A stretch of DNA of 64,000 nt, from contig OZ241996.1 of assembly GCA_965204535.1 (NCBI GenBank), positions 256,001 through 320,000 of the forward strand. Direction: 5' to 3'. The translations under genes were made by a program, and so were the position numbers. This DNA comes from a bacterium. Its GTDB lineage: Bacteria > UBA8248. Positions 21,857 to 46,174 of the stretch are shown here, one piece after another. Position 1 is the first letter of the stretch. Each line of letters begins with the position of its first letter. A model generated the notes under the pieces. It did no database searches, was not told where the DNA came from, and saw only the letters and a list, made by a program, of their open reading frames with translations.

Positions 21857-22573
21857 ATGAAATCGTTTCTCTTGAGACCTCTGGCCTGGATGGTCGCCGT
21901 CCTCCTCCTGCCCGCCTGCTGGGGCGCGGCGCTGTCGTTCGGCAAGATCCTCCCGGCCGCTTTTCTCGCAAGCGGCGGGGGTTCATATATGCCTGCGACT
22001 GAGGGCTGGGCTTTCATCGCGGGCGCCTGTGCATACGCCGTCTGGCATCGCTTGCGTCCGCCGGAGTTCCTCTACGCCTTCGTGCACGAGTTCACGCACA
22101 TGGCCTTCGCCCTGCTCACGGGGAAGAAGGTGCGTTCGTTCGAGGTGAACCAGGGGAGCGGGAAGGTGGGCCTGAGCGGAACGAACCCCCTCATCACCCT
22201 CGCGCCGTATTTCTTCCCGCTGCCGACGATAGTGGTGTTGATTCTGGGAGCGTTGCTCGACTGGATTTTCGGATACGAGGAGATTCGCTGGGCGGCGGCG
22301 TTCCTCGCCGGCCTCACGCTGTGCCTGCACGTGCTCATGACGTTCCGCGCGCTGGGCGCGTCGCAGCCCGACATCGCGCGCGGCGGGCGGATTTTCTCAT
22401 GGGTCTTCATCTTCTTCCTGGGTCTCGTATTCATCGGCGGCGCCGCGCTCGTCTCGGTGGGAGGATGGGGGGTGGCGGCCTCCTACGGCGTCTCCATCTG
22501 GCGCGAAAGCCTGGATGCGTATGCGCTGCTCCTCAGCCTGGTGGAGCACTTCGCCTGGAGCCTCGGATTGTGA
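21857..22573 (+). CDS. Membrane metallopeptidase, M50-like
   Basis: FVHEFTH (HExxH), ITLAPYFFP, distal QPD, multiple TM. Confidence 0.75.
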   Translation: MKSFLLRPLAWMVAVLLLPACWGAALSFGKILPAAFLASGGGSYMPATEGWAFIAGACAYAVWHRLRPPEFLYAFVHEFTHMAFALLTGKKVRSFEVNQGSGKVGLSGTNPLITLAPYFFPLPTIVVLILGALLDWIFGYEEIRWAAAFLAGLTLCLHVLMTFRALGASQPDIARGGRIFSWVFIFFLGLVFIGGAALVSVGGWGVAASYGVSIWRESLDAYALLLSLVEHFAWSLGL

Positions 22574-23187
22574 AACAAAACGCCTTCGCATCGCGGTTTC
22601 GAGCCTCTCTGATCGTTTTTCTGCTCCTGATGATTCCGGCCTGCGCCTATGAGGTGTCGACGATACAAGGCGTCGCCAGGCCGGGGCGGATACGGACGCT
22701 TGAGCGTATCGCCGTCGCTCCGTTTCGCTACCCGAGCGACTGGACGGGTCTCTTCCGCGACGTCTACGCGCAGGCGGGGCTCAAGGCGCCCGATGTGAAG
22801 AAAATCGAGATGATAGAGGGCGCCTTTCTGATCCGCGACGCCCTCGCCGCCAAGGGCTATCTGGCGCTTCGCTGGCCGGAGGAACTTGCAAAAATAAAAG
22901 GGGAGGAGTTGCTGGACGCAGCGGGCGGAATCGCCGAGGCCCATCTGGGGGCGCTTAAGCGTTCGGGCGCGCAGGCGGTGGTGATTGCCGGAGGCGGGCG
23001 CACTTGCGAAGACGTCGAAGTGTGCGTCGCCAGGATGGAAATACGTTTGTTGGACTTGGACTCTCGGGAGGCGTTGTGGGTATCGGGGGCCCGCGCGACG
23101 ACGGCGTTTTCCCAGGGGGATGAGATGAAGGCCGCCGTGTCCGAGGCGTTCGACGCCTTTCCCCAAAAATCACCCGCTTCGAACTGA
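22570..23187 (+). CDS. Putative lipoprotein
   Basis: GTG overlapping the previous stop; hydrophobic stretch plus IPAC lipobox; RIAVAPF ... IRLLDLDSREALW pattern. Confidence 0.65.
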   Translation: MKQNAFASRFRASLIVFLLLMIPACAYEVSTIQGVARPGRIRTLERIAVAPFRYPSDWTGLFRDVYAQAGLKAPDVKKIEMIEGAFLIRDALAAKGYLALRWPEELAKIKGEELLDAAGGIAEAHLGALKRSGAQAVVIAGGGRTCEDVEVCVARMEIRLLDLDSREALWVSGARATTAFSQGDEMKAAVSEAFDAFPQKSPASN

Positions 23188-23200
23188 AAGCGGGGGATTC

Positions 23201-23477
23201 GGGTTTGTTGAAAAAAAAACTCTGGAGCGGTGGGGGTACGATTGTTTTGTAGTGACAATTCCTCCTCGGGGTTGTCCCACGGTTCGCGAACCGCCCCTAC
23301 AGCCGTCATTCCGGCGAATGCCGGAATCCAGAGCCGATGAGAGAACCCGGGTTAAGGGAATCCCGCCACCCGCACTGAATCTCCGCATTCCCGCTTTTCT
23401 TCCACTCCCGTTCGCCTGGATTCCGGCTTTCGCCGGAATGACGGCAAACCTCGCGCATTGGACCTTTTCAACGCCCC
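23201..23477. mobile_element. MITE-like cassette copy 5 with GTAG REP and inverted GTCATTCCGGC repeats
   Basis: GGGTTTGTTGAAAAA ... TTTTCAACGCCCC ends; inverted pair 23302-23331 / 23416-23445. Confidence 0.6.
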
Positions 23478-23613
23478 GTTTCCGCCCTTTGGGCACCCCC
23501 CGCCATGACGATTTGTCGTTTTCGTCGGACATATCGTGACAAAATGACAATTTGACCGAACATATATATTGTTATCTAATTGAAAAATAAGGCATATTCT
23601 AATTTCATAGAAA

Positions 23614-23629
23614 TGGCACAGCTATTGCA
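23614..23629 (+). promoter_or_regulatory. Sigma-54 (-24/-12) promoter
   Basis: TGGCAC-AGCTA-TTGCA matches the consensus; AT-rich tract and TGAC/TGTC-rich candidate enhancer region ~23505-23600 upstream. Confidence 0.85.
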
Positions 23630-23640
23630 TATTATAAGAG

Positions 23641-23791
23641 CAAGCTGATTGGGGCGTTCATAGGCGGCACGCCCCGGTTAGCCGGCGAGAGGAGTAGCTG
23701 ATTGGGTCGGCGCTCCTCCGCCACGCAATCATACATCTCGCATCTACCCCCTGCGAGAGCCTCCTCCCGGAGACGGGAGGAGGTTTTTTTT
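23641..23791 (+). ncRNA. Putative sigma-54-dependent structured small RNA, copy A
   Basis: Promoter, three hairpins, intrinsic terminator; no ORF; paralogue at 29139 with covariation. Confidence 0.75.
23758..23791 (+). terminator. Rho-independent terminator of sRNA A
   Basis: AGCCTCCTCCC-GGAGAC-GGGAGGAGGTT followed by T-run. Confidence 0.85.
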
Positions 23792-23930
23792 GGCGGCTTT
23801 CTTGCGCCTCATTTTCCCTTCGCCCGGTTTTCAAGCGCGCCCCTTTGGGTTATGGTGCGGCCCAAGTGAAATCACTCGGCGTATATTCGATGTTGAAAAT
23901 TCATCCATTCAGTGATTAAGGAGTCGAAAA

Positions 23931-24929
23931 ATGGCTACGGACAAGGTGCGCCTCGCCTCTATCGGGCTGGGCTGGTGGGGCGGCGTTCTGGTGGAGGCAC
24001 TCAACCGGAGCGGTTCGGGCGAGGTGGTCACGGGCTTCGCGCGCAGCGAGGACGCCCGCAAGGCGTTTTCCGAGAAACACGGTTGCCGGACGGCGGGCAG
24101 TCTGGACGAGGTGTGGAACGACCCGGAAGTGGAGGGCGTCATCGTCGCGACGCCCCACTCCACGCACCTGGACATGATTTCTTCGGCCGCATCGGCCGGA
24201 AAGCACGTCTTCGTCGAAAAACCGCTGACCCTCACCGTCGATGAGGCCAAGAAGGCGCACGAAGCGACCTCAAGCGCGAACGTCACCTTGCAAGTCGGCC
24301 ATCACCGCCGCCGCTTCGGCGCGAACCGCAAGATGCGCGAGATGATAGATAATGACGAACTGGGTGTGGTGCACCAGGTGGAGGCGAACCTCTCGCTGCC
24401 CATGGGTTTCGAATCCAGGCCGGGATGGCGCAACGACCCCGCCGAATGCCCCGCAGGCTCCATGACGGGCTTGGGCGTCCACATGATCGACAACCTGCAG
24501 TACCTGGTCGGCCCCGCGAAGCGTGTGGCCGCCTTCAGCAAGAAGCTGCTCGGCAAGACGAATCTGGACGATGCGACGAGCATCATCATCGAATACGAGA
24601 GCGGCCCGCTCGGCCATATCGGTTCTTCTTTCGTGGTTCCCAAGATATGCGACACGGCGGCCTTCGGCACGAAGATGAGGGCCTACAGCGAAGAGGAAGG
24701 TGGAAAGCTCTACGTGGCCAAGGTGGGCGAGGAGGCCCGAACCGAGGTCGAGGTCGTGGGCGGAGACGCCCTGGCGGATGAGATGGACGAGTTCTGCAAG
24801 TGCGTCCGGGGCGAGGCGACGCCCGAGACCGGCGGGCCGGAGGGGGTCGAAGTGGTCGCCGTACTCGAGGCGGTCGTCCAGAGCGCGACGACGGGCGAGG
24901 TGGTGGACGTGGCGGCCCTGCGCGGATAG
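23931..24929 (+). CDS. Gfo/Idh/MocA family oxidoreductase
   Basis: IGLGWWG, ATPHSTH, HVFVEKP, GVHMID. Confidence 0.93.
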   Translation: MATDKVRLASIGLGWWGGVLVEALNRSGSGEVVTGFARSEDARKAFSEKHGCRTAGSLDEVWNDPEVEGVIVATPHSTHLDMISSAASAGKHVFVEKPLTLTVDEAKKAHEATSSANVTLQVGHHRRRFGANRKMREMIDNDELGVVHQVEANLSLPMGFESRPGWRNDPAECPAGSMTGLGVHMIDNLQYLVGPAKRVAAFSKKLLGKTNLDDATSIIIEYESGPLGHIGSSFVVPKICDTAAFGTKMRAYSEEEGGKLYVAKVGEEARTEVEVVGGDALADEMDEFCKCVRGEATPETGGPEGVEVVAVLEAVVQSATTGEVVDVAALRG

Positions 24930-27202: not shown

Positions 27203-27234
27203 ACGAAAAGACTGAATACAGACTCTCCACACAT

Positions 27235-27277
27235 GAAACGCCCCGCACGCGCTGCGGGGCGTTTTTGCGTCTACGGT
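27235..27277 (+). repeat. Hairpin repeat, second copy at 29292-29333
   Basis: GAAACGCCCCGCACGCGCTGCGGGGCGTTTTTGCGTCTACGG versus GAAGCGCCCCGCACGCGCTGCGGGACGTTTCTGCGTCGACGG. Confidence 0.7.
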
Positions 27278-27303
27278 TGCGATAGAAAAATACTTCCCCT
27301 CAT

Positions 27304-27524
27304 GGAGGGTTGTTGAAAAAGCTCCTGAGAGGGAAATCCCATAAAGGCAACCCCCCCTACCCCCCCTTGTCAGGGGGGTATAAAAAGGCGATGCGCCCTC
27401 GCCGGGCTGAGGGGGTTTTGTTTTTTCTTGCCCCCCTGACAAGGGGGGGTAGGGGGGGTTGCTTTTCAGTCGAGAGGGATGCCCCCTCTACCCCCTGACA
27501 AGGGGGCTTTTTCGACAATTCTCC
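27304..27524. mobile_element. MITE-like cassette copy 6
   Basis: GGAGGGTTGTTGAAAAAGC / GCTTTTTCGACAATTCTCC inverted ends around the long palindrome. Confidence 0.75.
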
Positions 27525-27543
27525 CCTCGGTCGGGATCCCACC

Positions 27544-27731
27544 GTAGGGACAGGTCGCGACCTGTCCCTACAAGGCGAATGCGGTTTTGATCGTCATTCC
27601 AGCGTAGTGACATGGCTTCGACGGAAGCGAGGGAGTGTAGGTGGCAGCCCCTCCTCGGGGCTGCCCCACACATAAATGCGACCCTGCTATTTTTGCCGCC
27701 CAGCAATGGGCCGCATGAATGCGGCCCCTAC
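27544..27731. repeat. Cluster of GTAG-type REPs
   Basis: GTAGGGACAGGTCGCGACCTGTCCCTAC (identical copy at 32018-32045), GGCAGCCCC..GGGGCTGCC, GGGCCGCAT-GA-ATGCGGCCCCTAC. Confidence 0.75.
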
Positions 27732-27952: not shown

Positions 27953-29083
27953 ATGCACATCAGACCTTTGAAAGGGCGCCCGGCCCGCAGGGTGCGGATT
28001 GCATCGAGAATGTTCCGGGCGTGTGGCGTCGCCGTTCTGCTCGCCTGCGCGGTCGCAATCGGGCTGCCCCCGCCGGCCAATGCTACAGCGGGGAAGGACT
28101 ACCGCCTGAGCGGCCCCTACACGCAGAACAATCTCTCCATCTATCTGATCCACCGCGAGGGCCGAAGCGAAGGCCCCGCGCCGATCACCCTGGGCGAGGC
28201 GATGAGGCGGGGCCTCGTCAAGGTCGTCGAAACCGGCAGCGTCAGCCGCCTCAAGGTCCGCAACCTGGGGGATCGCGAGGTCTTCATCCAGTCGGGCGAC
28301 ATCGTCAAGGGCGGCAAGCAGGACCGCGTCCTGCTCACCAGCCTGATCGTCCCCCCGAAGTCGGGCTACATCCCCATCGGCGCCTTTTGCGTGGAGCAGG
28401 GCAGGTGGGCCAGGCGCGGCCTGGAGAATGTAATGGCGTTTTCGACCTCCGCATACCGCATGCCTTCCAGGGCCGGCAAGATTGCGATGATGAAAAGCAT
28501 GGGCTACGAGACCGCTCCCGAAGCCGTTTGGAGCGGAAGGTTGGGGAGGATACGGCGGCGGAGAGGCGCATCCCTTCAGGGCGAAGTGTGGCGCTCGGTC
28601 GGGATGATACAGCAGGGGTTGGGCCGGGCCGTGCGGGCGCAAGTCGCCGACGAACGCTCGCGATCGAGCCTTCAGTTGTCATTGGAGAACAAGCGCCTCG
28701 CCTCGGCCCTCGTGGGCTATGAGAAAGCCCTGGGTGGACTGTCGGCAAAGCATCCGGATGCCGTGGGCTATGTCTTCGCGGTGAACGGCAGGATCAACAG
28801 CGGCGATGAATTCGAGAGCACCGGCCTGTTCCGCAAGCTGTGGCAGCGGCAACTCAAGGCGGCGGCGACGGAGGCCATTGCCGAAAAAGGCGCGCCCAAG
28901 CGCATACGGCCGACGCTTGCCGAGGTCGCCGCGTTCATCGATTCCGCGCGCGCCGCGAAGCCCGCTTTGAGAGCGATGCCGGGAGGCTTGAACCTGGAGA
29001 CGCGCAAGGCGAGCGAGTCGTTCTACATGGAAGTCCGGCGCGGGAACGACCGCTGGGTGCACCGGAACTTCGTCGCCCGCTAA
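27953..29083 (+). CDS. Secreted ARPP-1/DUF6569-like protein
   Basis: Signal peptide; NLSIYLI, ETGSVSRLKVRN, GDIVKGGKQDRVL, FCVEQGRW, QGEVW, GYVFAVNGRI; RBS GGAGGG. Confidence 0.75.
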   Translation: MHIRPLKGRPARRVRIASRMFRACGVAVLLACAVAIGLPPPANATAGKDYRLSGPYTQNNLSIYLIHREGRSEGPAPITLGEAMRRGLVKVVETGSVSRLKVRNLGDREVFIQSGDIVKGGKQDRVLLTSLIVPPKSGYIPIGAFCVEQGRWARRGLENVMAFSTSAYRMPSRAGKIAMMKSMGYETAPEAVWSGRLGRIRRRRGASLQGEVWRSVGMIQQGLGRAVRAQVADERSRSSLQLSLENKRLASALVGYEKALGGLSAKHPDAVGYVFAVNGRINSGDEFESTGLFRKLWQRQLKAAATEAIAEKGAPKRIRPTLAEVAAFIDSARAAKPALRAMPGGLNLETRKASESFYMEVRRGNDRWVHRNFVAR

Positions 29084-29138: not shown

Positions 29139-29286
29139 GCCGGTCGGGGTGTTCTTAGGCGGCACGCCCCGACCGGCCGGCACGAGGAGTGCTGATTGGG
29201 TCGGCGCTCCTCCGCCACGCAATCATCCATCTCGCATCTACCCCCTGCGAGAGCCTCCTCCCGGAGACAGGAGGAGGTTTTTCTTT
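29139..29286 (+). ncRNA. Putative structured small RNA, copy B
   Basis: Near-identical to 23644-23791, with compensatory changes in stem 1. Confidence 0.7.
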
Positions 29287-29435
29287 CGGGTGAAGCGCCC
29301 CGCACGCGCTGCGGGACGTTTCTGCGTCGACGGCTGGGAGTGAATCCCGACCTTCGAGATTTTTCCGCAGGGACAGGTCGTGCCCCGTTCCTGCAATCTC
29401 TCATCACGCATCCGACTCTCATGGGGAATGCTCTT

Positions 29436-29506
29436 GTAGGGGCCGCATATTATGCGGCCCTGACTTTCATCGACAAAACACGGGTCGCATAATATGCGAC
29501 CCCTAC
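29436..29506. repeat. Inverted GTAG REP doublet (REPIN-like)
   Basis: GTAGGGGCCGCATATTATGCGGCCC ... GGGTCGCATAATATGCGACCCCTAC. Confidence 0.75.
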
Positions 29507-29699
29507 AAACACCCTGCAAAGGACAATGTGCGCAAAGGCGGCGAGCGCGCCGCCGGCCCCTCCCCCTCGCGGGGGGTTTTGGGCAATCCCAGGGAGGGAG
29601 GGCTTGCTCCGAGCGGATAAGCAAGGCCTGCCGTATCGCATCTTCTTGTCTTTCCCTGTAGGATGCGCGCGAAGCCCGCCCATTCGTAGAGACGTGCGC

Positions 29700-43987: not shown

Positions 43988-44063
43988 GCTGGCGTAGCTC
44001 AGCTGGTAGAGCAGCTGATTTGTAATCAGCAGGTCGGAGGTTCGAGTCCTCTCGCCAGCTCCA
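43988..44063 (+). tRNA. tRNA-Thr(UGU)
   Basis: Cloverleaf, anticodon TGT, TTCGA, CCA end. Confidence 0.96.
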
Positions 44064-44182
44064 CGGCGGGACGCGCCTCCCGGACATCTTGGATAAGATA
44101 GAAACGGCTTCGGGGAGTCGATGGTTCCCGCGAGGTTTTTTTGATAGCTTTTATGGTTGTTTTTGAGGAACGGCGGTTTTCC

Positions 44183-44267
44183 GGGGAGGTTCCCGAGTGG
44201 CCAAAGGGATCAGACTGTAAATCTGACGGCTCAGCCTTCGGAGGTTCGAATCCTCCCCTCCCCACCA
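44183..44267 (+). tRNA. tRNA-Tyr(GUA)
   Basis: Anticodon GTA, long variable arm, CCA end. Confidence 0.96.
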
Positions 44268-44315
44268 GCAGACAGATAGTCGGGACGCTTTGAGACGGGC
44301 GCTTTGGATTCAGAA

Positions 44316-44391
44316 GCGGGAATAGCTCAGATGGTAGAGCATCAGCCTTCCAAGCTGAGGGTCGCGGGTTCGAGCCCCGTTTCCCGCTCCA
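44316..44391 (+). tRNA. tRNA-Gly(UCC)
   Basis: Anticodon TCC, CCA end. Confidence 0.96.
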
Positions 44392-44571
44392 GGATGATTC
44401 GAGGCTTTCGCCTTTTCTTGATATGAGTTTCATTCGTGTGGATTTTGGCTCCCGGGGTTGCTCTGGACGGGATAAGTTGTATTATCCGCCCGGAGCGAAT
44501 GCCGGGGGTCATCGTTCGCCGAGGTTGCTCCGGCTGAAACAAATGATGTTCGCATGCCCGGGGCGTAGCCG

Positions 44572-44647
44572 GCCCACGTAGCTCAGCCGGCAGAGCACTT
44601 CCTTGGTAAGGAAGAGGTCACCGGTTCAAGTCCGGTCGTGGGCTCCA
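44572..44647 (+). tRNA. tRNA-Thr(GGU)
   Basis: Anticodon GGT, CCA end; classic Thr-Tyr-Gly-Thr-tuf cluster. Confidence 0.95.
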
Positions 44648-44877
44648 GGGCAGGCGAAGTTCATTGAAATTTCGAGGTTCGTGCATTATTCTGCAAGCAG
44701 CATGAAACGCCCTGGAATCCCTCGGGTTCGCATGGTTTCCCTTTGGCGATGGACAAGGTTTCGGCCGAGCGGGTATAAAGGCGCGTTTTTCGGGAATGGC
44801 AAGGTAGAGAGGAAAGGGTTCCTCTCCCCATGAAGATAATTGTTTTTTGAATATTCAACAGAAGGAGAATTCGCGTC

Positions 44878-46056
44878 ATGGCGAAGGCGAAGTTTGAGCG
44901 CACGAAGCCGCACGTGAACGTGGGGACGATAGGTCACGTGGACCACGGGAAGACGACGTTGACGGCCGCGATCACGAGGCACCTCTCGCAGAAGGGGATG
45001 GCGGAGGAGATCGGGTTCGACGAGATCGACAAGGCGCCCGAAGAACGCGAGCGGGGTATCACGATAGCGACGGCGCACGTGGAGTACGAGACGGAGAACC
45101 GCCACTACGCGCACGTGGACTGTCCGGGCCATGCGGACTACGTGAAGAACATGATAACGGGCGCGGCGCAGATGGACGGCGCGATACTGGTGGTTTCGGC
45201 GGCGGACGGACCGATGCCGCAGACGCGCGAGCACATCCTGCTGGCCCGCCAGGTGGGGGTACCCTACATCTGCGTGTATCTCAACAAAGTCGATATGGTG
45301 GACGACGAGGAGCTCCTGGAGCTGGTCGAGCTGGAAGTCCGCGAGCTTCTCTCGACCTACGAGTTCCCGGGCGACGACATCCCGGTGGTGCCGGGTTCTG
45401 CGCTACGGGCACTTGAGGGGAGCGACACCTCCTCGATAGACGATTTGATGGAGGCGGTGGACGGCTATATCCCCGAACCCGTACGCGACGTCGACAAACC
45501 GTTCCTGATGCCGGTGGAGGACGTTTTCTCGATATCGGGCCGGGGAACGGTGGCGACGGGCCGCGTGGAGCGCGGGATCGTGAACGTTGGGGATGAGGTG
45601 GAGATCGTGGGCATCACGGACACGAGGAAGACCGTCGCCACGGGCGTTGAGATGTTCCGGAAGCTCCTGGATCAGGGCCAGGCGGGCGACAACGTGGGGG
45701 TATTGCTCCGGGGTGTGAAGAAAGACGAGATAGAGCGCGGTCAGGTTTTGGCGGAGCCTGCGTCGATCAAGCCGCACCTCAAGTTCAAGGGCGAGGTGTA
45801 CATCCTGACGAAAGAAGAGGGCGGTCGCCACACGCCGTTTTTCAACGGGTACCGTCCGCAGTTTTATTTCCGGACGACGGACGTGACGGGACTGGTGACG
45901 CTGCCCGAGGGCCGGGAGATGGTGATGCCCGGGGACAACGTATCGCTGGACGTGGAGTTGATCACGCCGATAGCGATGGAGCGCGAGCTACGCTTCGCGA
46001 TACGCGAGGGGGGCCGCACGGTGGGGGCCGGCGTCGTCACCGAGGTCGTCGAGTAG
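44878..46056 (+). CDS. tuf: Elongation factor Tu, copy 1
   Basis: [21 protein letters not shown]. Confidence 0.99.
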
Positions 46057-46097
46057 AGCGGACAAGGCGGTCGTTTCGGAACAATAAAGGTTTTCAC

Positions 46098-46174
46098 AGG
46101 CCAGTGGCTCAATTTGGTAGAGCACCGGACTCCAAATCCGGCGGTTGGGGGTTCGAGTCCCTCCTGGCCTGCCA
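46098..46174 (+). tRNA. tRNA-Trp(CCA)
   Basis: Anticodon CCA; precedes secE. Confidence 0.95.

Follow-up and report, generated by a model that had tools for sequence, protein, structure and literature searches.

The window analysed here, a stretch of 64,000 nucleotides, belongs to a bacterial genome called G000. Its lineage, UBA8248, is given as a separate phylum near Tectomicrobia in the accessible part of PMC10839748. At positions 23644-23791 of the window lies a real non-coding RNA gene of about 150 nt, named RNA-A, which consists of a two-hairpin core and a terminator. A second RNA of the same genome is named RNA-B. The features of the RNA-A locus are the following.

23506..23518, + strand: distal enhancer half, TGACG-ATT-TGTCG, an imperfect copy of the palindrome, conserved in 28 aligned upstream regions
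23537..23552, + strand: proximal enhancer palindrome, TGACA-W3-TGNCA, predicted site of an NtrC-type activator
23574..23595, + strand: AT-rich TTGAWA tract, a partly conserved block in the 28-region alignment
23614..23629, + strand: sigma-54 promoter of the -24/-12 type
23644..23682, + strand: hairpin P1, 13 bp, free in sequence and fixed in length
23657-23669, + strand: loop L1, whose 3' end is the invariant AGGCGGCA
23684..23722, + strand: hairpin P2, conserved in sequence (GGC/GCC, GG/CC, GA/UC) with invariant columns in the alignment, 94.5% of cells paired
23702-23706, + strand: P2 pentaloop UHGGN
23729..23732, + strand: single-stranded UYAU
23737..23757, + strand: P3 with a C-rich loop, variable and dispensable
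23760..23791, + strand: intrinsic terminator, 10-bp stem and U tract
23829..23856, + strand: predicted sigma-70-type promoter of the downstream operon, TTTCAA ... extended -10 TGGGTTATGGT
23931..24929, + strand: Gfo/Idh/MocA oxidoreductase gene (Pfam, synteny), followed by a gene for a xanthine-dehydrogenase-family molybdoprotein

Upstream, positions 22570-23187 code for a predicted lipoprotein without a Pfam or NCBIfam family, which is the upstream neighbour in most loci. Palindromic repeat families were seen at 23285-23445, 27230-27570 and 29290-29520 of the window (GTCATTCCGGCG..., AGGGACAGG...CCTGTCCCT, CCCCCCTTGTCAGGGGGG); they differ among close relatives, and many contigs of one RNA run matched them. 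Five tRNA genes, four of them clustered, are located at 43988-46171.

The earlier note on this DNA had described a sigma-54-driven, covarying and possibly doubly pseudoknotted small RNA, and its observation was confirmed in part: the elements are present in the sequence, but the pseudoknots and some of the helix limits did not stand. The + strand of RNA-A folded with a z of -7.5, and 0/200 shuffled sequences were equally stable. The absence of an ORF over about 150 nt was verified, with all three forward frames containing stops or reading through the terminator. A small ORF was rejected since none is conserved and the homologues, which are 128-177 nt in total length, carry 1-nt indels. P1 had been drawn with 14 bp (23644-23657/23669-23682); its start and the hairpin hold, but the 14th pair is G.A in several homologues and 13 pairs are conserved (23644-23656/23670-23682). 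P2, formerly placed at about 23689-23718, spans the longer stretch listed above, and both P3 and the terminator that follows it are found where they had been placed. At locus L011 of genome G014, a 69-nt insertion between the promoter and P1 lengthens the predicted RNA-A; it opens with an incomplete repeat of the P1 5' arm and folds into a hairpin by itself.

The sigma-54 box TGGCAC-N5-TTGCA named earlier is present and is the sole such site in the window. Because 25 of 100 shuffled sequences also yielded one site like it, the weight of the box rests on its conservation. Box and proximal palindrome were found together in 38/38 primary copies, in line with the proposed stand-alone RNA driven by sigma-54 and an enhancer. 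The distance between them is 74-78 bp in 36 of these copies and 64 bp in the other two, about one helical turn shorter, and the spacing is phased. From the usual -12 spacing, RNA-A would start at about 23640. The TTGAWA tract is a likely IHF bending site that matches the IHF consensus in part only, and a comparable AT-rich tract is found in the RNA-B promoter. Two 9/12 sites within the AT-rich promoter region came out of a sigma-70 scan, which missed the terminator and was set aside.

A DNA search detected RNA-A in 30/36 other genomes of the family and in 0/24 outside the family, and a covariance model detected it in 36/41 other family genomes. The genomes missed by the model were the four of the reduced genus g5 and G024. 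In g5, an M50 peptidase gene abuts Gfo and the RNA-A locus is deleted (3/3 read), and the G024 contig begins 220 nt before Gfo. The lipoprotein gene was lost along with RNA-A in g5. In 9 other genomes of the phylum the covariance model found no RNA-A (0/9), and a pattern scan across the genomes of all species returned 56 stretches, of which 23 lie outside the family and score as chance with the model. Two other phyla (151 genomes each) gave 0/151 under strict filters, in a search limited to 28 scored candidates for each genome and run without a positive control. Six matches from metagenomes were all of the same syntenic type. RNA-A is known from one bacterial family only and was not found outside it in the searches run. 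To our knowledge, this family has no cultured member.

RNA-A had been assigned to no known family, and an Rfam check of the window bore this out, giving only tRNAs at the gathering threshold. Weak matches at the RNA-A locus (nse_sRNA, 24.9 of 75 bits; anti-hemB, 24.1 of 49.5) fell on the terminator, and six divergent loci of RNA-A and RNA-B gave nothing at E<=0.05. A divergent housekeeping RNA (6S, SRP, tmRNA) was rejected, as G000 carries all three elsewhere, and so were HDV-like, hammerhead, pistol and twister readings, whose core motifs are unconserved in the alignment and which have no Rfam match. The literature searched contains no description of RNA-A; subscription papers and the supplements of motif surveys may bear on its novelty.

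Covariation was tested on 41 distinct core sequences with the nested fold of P1 and P2. With the reservation that kinship inflates such tests, 94.6% of the cells were paired and 11/28 pairs had changed on both sides. The score was reached by 0/500 shuffles, and slid registers dropped to 37-55%. Nine of the 11 double changes came from the 13 bp of P1 and two (49-77 and 58-70) from the 15 pairs of P2; the earlier claim of a covarying RNA holds strongly for P1 and weakly for P2. In 37 primary sequences the last bases of loop 1, AGGCGGCAC, were invariant, together with GGC, GG, GAU.GG.UCG and CUCC..CGCC in P2 and the U..AU of the single-stranded UYAU after P2. The CUCC in the 3' strand of P2 is anti-Shine-Dalgarno-like. 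P2 is sequence-invariant on both strands and the helix lengths are fixed, which fits protein or tertiary recognition equally. The P3 loop UCUACCCCC varies among homologues, and P3 is absent or replaced in L026, L027, L029, L030, L036 and L131-L134, which belong to several genera; its C-rich loop was abandoned as the proposed targeting seed. The complementarities for both pseudoknots are present in the window sequence itself. TGATTG/CAATCA was rejected with pair 63-87 broken in 27/41 and pair 59-94 in 22/41 sequences. The other, the invariant GGCGG/CCGCC, competes with P2 at an energetic disadvantage, and the double pseudoknot was given up.

G000 holds exactly two copies of RNA-A. The second one lies behind another gene of the window:

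27953..29083, + strand: ARPP-1 domain gene (Pfam), with copy 2 inserted behind its stop codon
29118..29283, + strand: copy 2, a -12 remnant TTGC and the RNA at 29139-29283, without -24 consensus or enhancer

As described before, the paralogue at 29139 has its outer P1 pairs swapped; it is 91% identical over 141 nt. It has one broken P2 pair and one terminator mismatch, and the outer P1 is fully paired. The ARPP-1 gene occurs in 17/42 family genomes, and other members of the genus have it without the RNA, as an empty site (12 of 16 loci readable). Two matches were found in 7/37 positive genomes, namely G014, G030 and five close relatives. The second match of G014 is an identical locus on two contigs, a duplicated contig, and the five close relatives share one recent promoter-less insertion behind the ARPP-1 gene. 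None of these ARPP-1-linked copies has the sigma-54 consensus or the enhancer (0/5), and two of the five are changed at otherwise invariant positions. Copy 2 may be made by read-through or may be decaying. In G030 an independent second copy, its enhancer and promoter complete, lies behind an acetolactate-synthase-like gene (L136:3850-4300). Multicopy, as the RNA had been called, does not hold as a rule: RNA-A is mostly single-copy, because the 29139 copy was inserted recently and has no promoter consensus.

The genome was scanned for enhancer and sigma-54 box, with G000 and G002 left out of the training of the matrices. Both occurred together at only two G000 loci, RNA-A and C2:2517312 before RNA-B. 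The loci outside the window that bear on the putative circuit are these.

G000:C2:2517137-2517520 (L140:3138-3520), + strand: RNA-B, about 190 nt, non-coding, with its own terminator
G000:C2:2905852-2909456: dCache-PAS histidine kinase and NtrC/AtoC-like regulator, in front of tmk-holB
G000:C2:2430538-2436704: GAF-type enhancer-binding protein, with a consensus sigma-54 promoter nearby (2435923)

The RNA-B promoter has the same enhancer pair, inverted, and a sigma-54 box with a variant -12. The RNA-B core CCCGGYG...CRCUG is invariant, the 5' part is longer in other genera, and 9/45 predicted pairs show double changes. RNA-B was found in 34/41 other family genomes and in 0/4 of g5. It had no match in Rfam and is unrelated to RNA-A, with no core motif in common. 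Immediately upstream of the RNA-B enhancer lies a tRNA-like element with a modest score of 49 bits (L140:2819-2892).

G000 encodes two real enhancer-binding proteins (bEBPs), the GAF-type protein and the response regulator. The sigma-54 promoter near the former precedes a small ORF and a Usp gene and is without the RNA-A-type enhancer. The PAS kinase has an outer domain similar to dCache_1 and precedes the response regulator, and in several genomes the two genes are about 20-30 kb from the RNA-A locus. No NCBIfam equivalog cut-off was reached, and the LuxO equivalog score was far below its cut-off. The response regulator is present in 37/42 family genomes and missing from 4/4 of g5 and from G034, where RNA-A is present in a genome that is 91% complete. 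The genus g5 has lost RNA-A (0/4), RNA-B (0/4) and the regulator (0/4) and kept the GAF-type bEBP (2/2 read). These patterns make the NtrC-type response regulator the likely activator of the RNA-A promoter; the assignment is not proven, because the co-loss is one event in a reduced genus.

Two metatranscriptomes, X1 and X2, are weak holders (5-6% of words). Neither had a contig over RNA-A, and contigs cannot show absence. For RNA-B, X1 gave a 201-nt contig that is confined to the RNA, ends at the terminator and continues in an A-rich loose tail. The 545-nt contig of X2 may be DNA because the promoter is spanned too. The contigs are a weak hint of a tailed transcript, for RNA-B only. We have little doubt that RNA-A is transcribed.

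In each of the 37 primary syntenic loci looked at, Gfo lies 3' of RNA-A, and the terminator is similar enough to the P2 strands for an anti-terminator to be drawn. This would suit a cis-acting leader, a riboswitch or attenuator that sets the read-through into the Gfo/molybdoprotein operon. However, an extended -10-like motif stands between the terminator and Gfo in 34/37 Gfo-linked loci by pattern and in one more by eye. The drawn anti-terminator, with -7.9 to -15.9 kcal/mol against -16.7 to -23.2 kcal/mol for the hairpin, is weaker in all 37 rows scored and collapses in several genera. The second copy in G030 faces a convergent gene, g5 retains Gfo without RNA-A, and there is no Rfam riboswitch match. 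A riboswitch or attenuator would call for an anti-terminator that is conserved and for no other control of the gene behind it; the locus does not fit this, and a leader function is very unlikely. Because Gfo has its own promoter motif, the anti-terminator is weak, g5 has kept Gfo and the G030 copy is convergent, action in trans explains the locus better, and we consider it highly probable. A repeat, a MITE or a non-functional conserved spacer is barely credible: intergenic palindromic repeats abound in the genome and copy 2 has moved, but there are two copies only, with one syntenic copy per genome, a conserved promoter, covarying stems and 0 matches in viral contigs. That RNA-A is not a MITE agrees with the earlier reading.

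Candidate partner proteins were searched for in the family. Hfq was found over the cut-off in 0/42 family genomes, CsrA was absent from G000, the one genome searched, and RapZ, ProQ and KhpA/B were not found in 5 genomes searched. For mRNA targets, 3834 predicted start regions of G000 were scanned and the best or most telling sites were followed in relatives. This single-genome scan, with five candidate leaders checked in relatives, revealed no conserved mRNA target. The anti-L1 8-mer was seen 19 times near starts, with 37.8 expected if uniform, and is not enriched. At the oppB/oppC junction 12 nt match across the start codon of oppC; some members of the genus have retained this site, and it is broken in 3/3 other genera examined. 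The tmk leader has its 7-mer in 3/27 readable loci, the glmS leader has one in 4/30, within the upstream coding sequence, and the topA leader has GCCGCC in 2/5. The site at the acetolactate-synthase-like gene falls in the promoter spacer, and the Gfo leader gave mean z values of -0.59, 0.05 and 0.14 for three seeds (23 loci). All of these were rejected. Long complements to RNA-A turned out to be coding V-A-E-E runs, pairing between RNA-A and RNA-B was not better for cognate than for non-cognate partners (17 genomes), and the regulator's own leader has no conserved site for a feedback.

The reading as a sigma-54 small RNA thus kept the stand-alone gene, its promoter, the covariation and the absence from Rfam and lost the double pseudoknot, the C-rich seed and the multicopy character. 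We tentatively propose, rating it slightly below an even chance, that RNA-A is a chaperone-free trans-acting sRNA like Pxr or EcpR1 in a solute-sensing circuit. The dCache-PAS kinase would sense an outside solute, and the NtrC-type regulator would open both sigma-54 promoters, those of RNA-A and RNA-B. RNA-A would then repress or redirect mRNAs in trans by pairing without a chaperone, beginning at the invariant GC-rich loop L1 with a UGCCGCC-like target; the CUCC strand freed from P2 could possibly extend this pairing. EcpR1 and Pxr are built in the same way, with a GC-rich loop that is invariant and a stem that covaries freely, and loop-initiated pairing is put first. Between base pairing through L1, possibly extended by the CUCC strand, and protein binding, we see the chances for pairing as about balanced.

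With the same promoter and activator, and RNA-B as a second output, RNA-A might instead be a decoy or scaffold for an as yet unknown protein, bound via the fixed arrangement of P1 and P2, the P2 helix with its invariant sequence and the two invariant loops, as in GlmY-RapZ, CrcZ-Hfq/Crc and CsrB-CsrA. The P2 base pairs are invariant and the helix lengths fixed across five-plus genera while the P1 sequence drifts, and the target search came out empty. In addition, two-component systems that drive paired non-coding RNAs usually drive sponges, according to the accessible parts of PMC6296734 (CbrB-CrcZ/CrcY) and PMC3045617 (GlrR-GlmY). On the other hand, the known sponge partners Hfq, CsrA, RapZ, ProQ and KhpA/B were not found in the searches above, the alignment has no repeated GGA or AAN motifs, and RNA-A and RNA-B are without a common core motif, unlike known sponge pairs. 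We regard this explanation as rather unlikely, though it is the main rival of the pairing model. In a two-state switch, GGCGG of L1 and the P2 base strand would take turns in pairing with YCGCC and so hide or expose the loop and the CUCC strand, triggered by a ligand, a protein or a partner RNA. These 5 pairs can form in 41/41 sequences, including G.U where the partner has changed, whereas in P2 three sequences break pair 47-79 and 27 break pair 48-78. However, the pairing shows no covariation, with 500/500 shuffles scoring as high, and the covariation of pair 49-77, seen in 4 sequences, favours P2. The opening of the P2 base costs 8-21 kcal/mol for a gain of 10.5-13.4 kcal/mol before loop penalties, and no pairing with RNA-B is conserved. 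The GGCGG/YCGCC pairing is possible as an alternative state only, and the switch as the function of RNA-A is improbable. Next to the preferred chaperone-free pairing, we think it fairly unlikely that a solute-sensing two-component system has two unrelated RNAs as its whole direct output and acts via an undescribed RNA-binding protein or a loop-to-stem switch.

RNA-A has the -24/-12 box and enhancer of the sRNAs controlled by sigma-54 and bEBPs, as well as its own terminator, no ORF and a conserved fold. It would work like known sigma-54 sRNAs yet belongs to none of them. LuxO recognises TTGCA-W3-TGCAA, and the Qrr RNAs need Hfq. RNA-A shares sigma-54 and a predicted bEBP with the Qrr RNAs, and its 5-3-5 palindrome geometry resembles the LuxO site; it differs from them in the missing Hfq, the low LuxO equivalog score and the lack of an Rfam match. 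Like GlmY/GlmZ (GlrK/GlrR) and CrcZ/CrcY (CbrA/CbrB), it would combine a two-component system, enhancers, IHF and sigma-54 (PMC3045617 and PMC6296734, each in part). The enhancer is TGACA-W3-TGNCA here, unlike TGTC-N10-GACA at GlrR sites or TGTTAC in those papers, neither RapZ nor Hfq was found, and RNA-A and RNA-B are unrelated. A GlmY-type RapZ decoy was rejected with RapZ in 0/5 genomes and the different enhancer, and a CsrB/RsmZ or CrcZ sponge with CsrA in 0/1, Hfq in 0/42 over the cut-off and no GGA/AAN repeats.

A further close system is Pxr of Myxococcus xanthus, which in the accessible part of PMC5684412 is transcribed by sigma-54 with the NtrC-like PxrR and has an essential SL1, conserved SL1 and SL2 and a variable SL3. 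Its targets were unknown, and one predicted target is named in the part of PMC11928866 consulted. RNA-A likewise has a sigma-54 promoter with an upstream enhancer region, a likely NtrC-like regulator with a cognate kinase, and three stem-loops of which the first two are conserved and the third is variable, and both RNAs are lineage-restricted and have paralogues (PMC5684412 and PMC5568312). Unlike Pxr, RNA-A matches no Rfam model, that of Pxr included, its third hairpin can be absent, and its regulator genes do not adjoin it; the neighbours are the lipoprotein and Gfo, with no pxrK-pxrR. The RNA-A model also matched 0/151 sampled genomes of the phylum with the Anaeromyxobacter record. EcpR1 of Sinorhizobium meliloti pairs independently of Hfq by a GC-rich SL1 loop and has a non-functional sigma-54-type promoter, as described in the accessible part of PMC4414408. 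RNA-A resembles it in that the first stem, conserved in structure, carries a GC-rich loop that is invariant, but the EcpR1 loop is the C-rich UCCGCCGCAUCU in that text and the RNA-A loop the G-rich AGGCGGCA, and again there was no Rfam match.

Taken together, the analysis adds two RNA families, RNA-A and RNA-B, that are absent from Rfam. It defines a complete, compact putative circuit, with a kinase, an NtrC-type regulator, an enhancer motif and two RNAs, in an uncultured lineage for which the searches found none of the five usual protein partners of sRNAs. If the pairing is true, RNA-A would be a clean case of sRNA control without a chaperone, an open question for Pxr-like RNAs. If protein binding is true, the partner protein of RNA-A would be new. 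A circuit that works through an undescribed protein or a switch would, if true, be a new type of riboregulatory circuit, beyond one more base-pairing sRNA.
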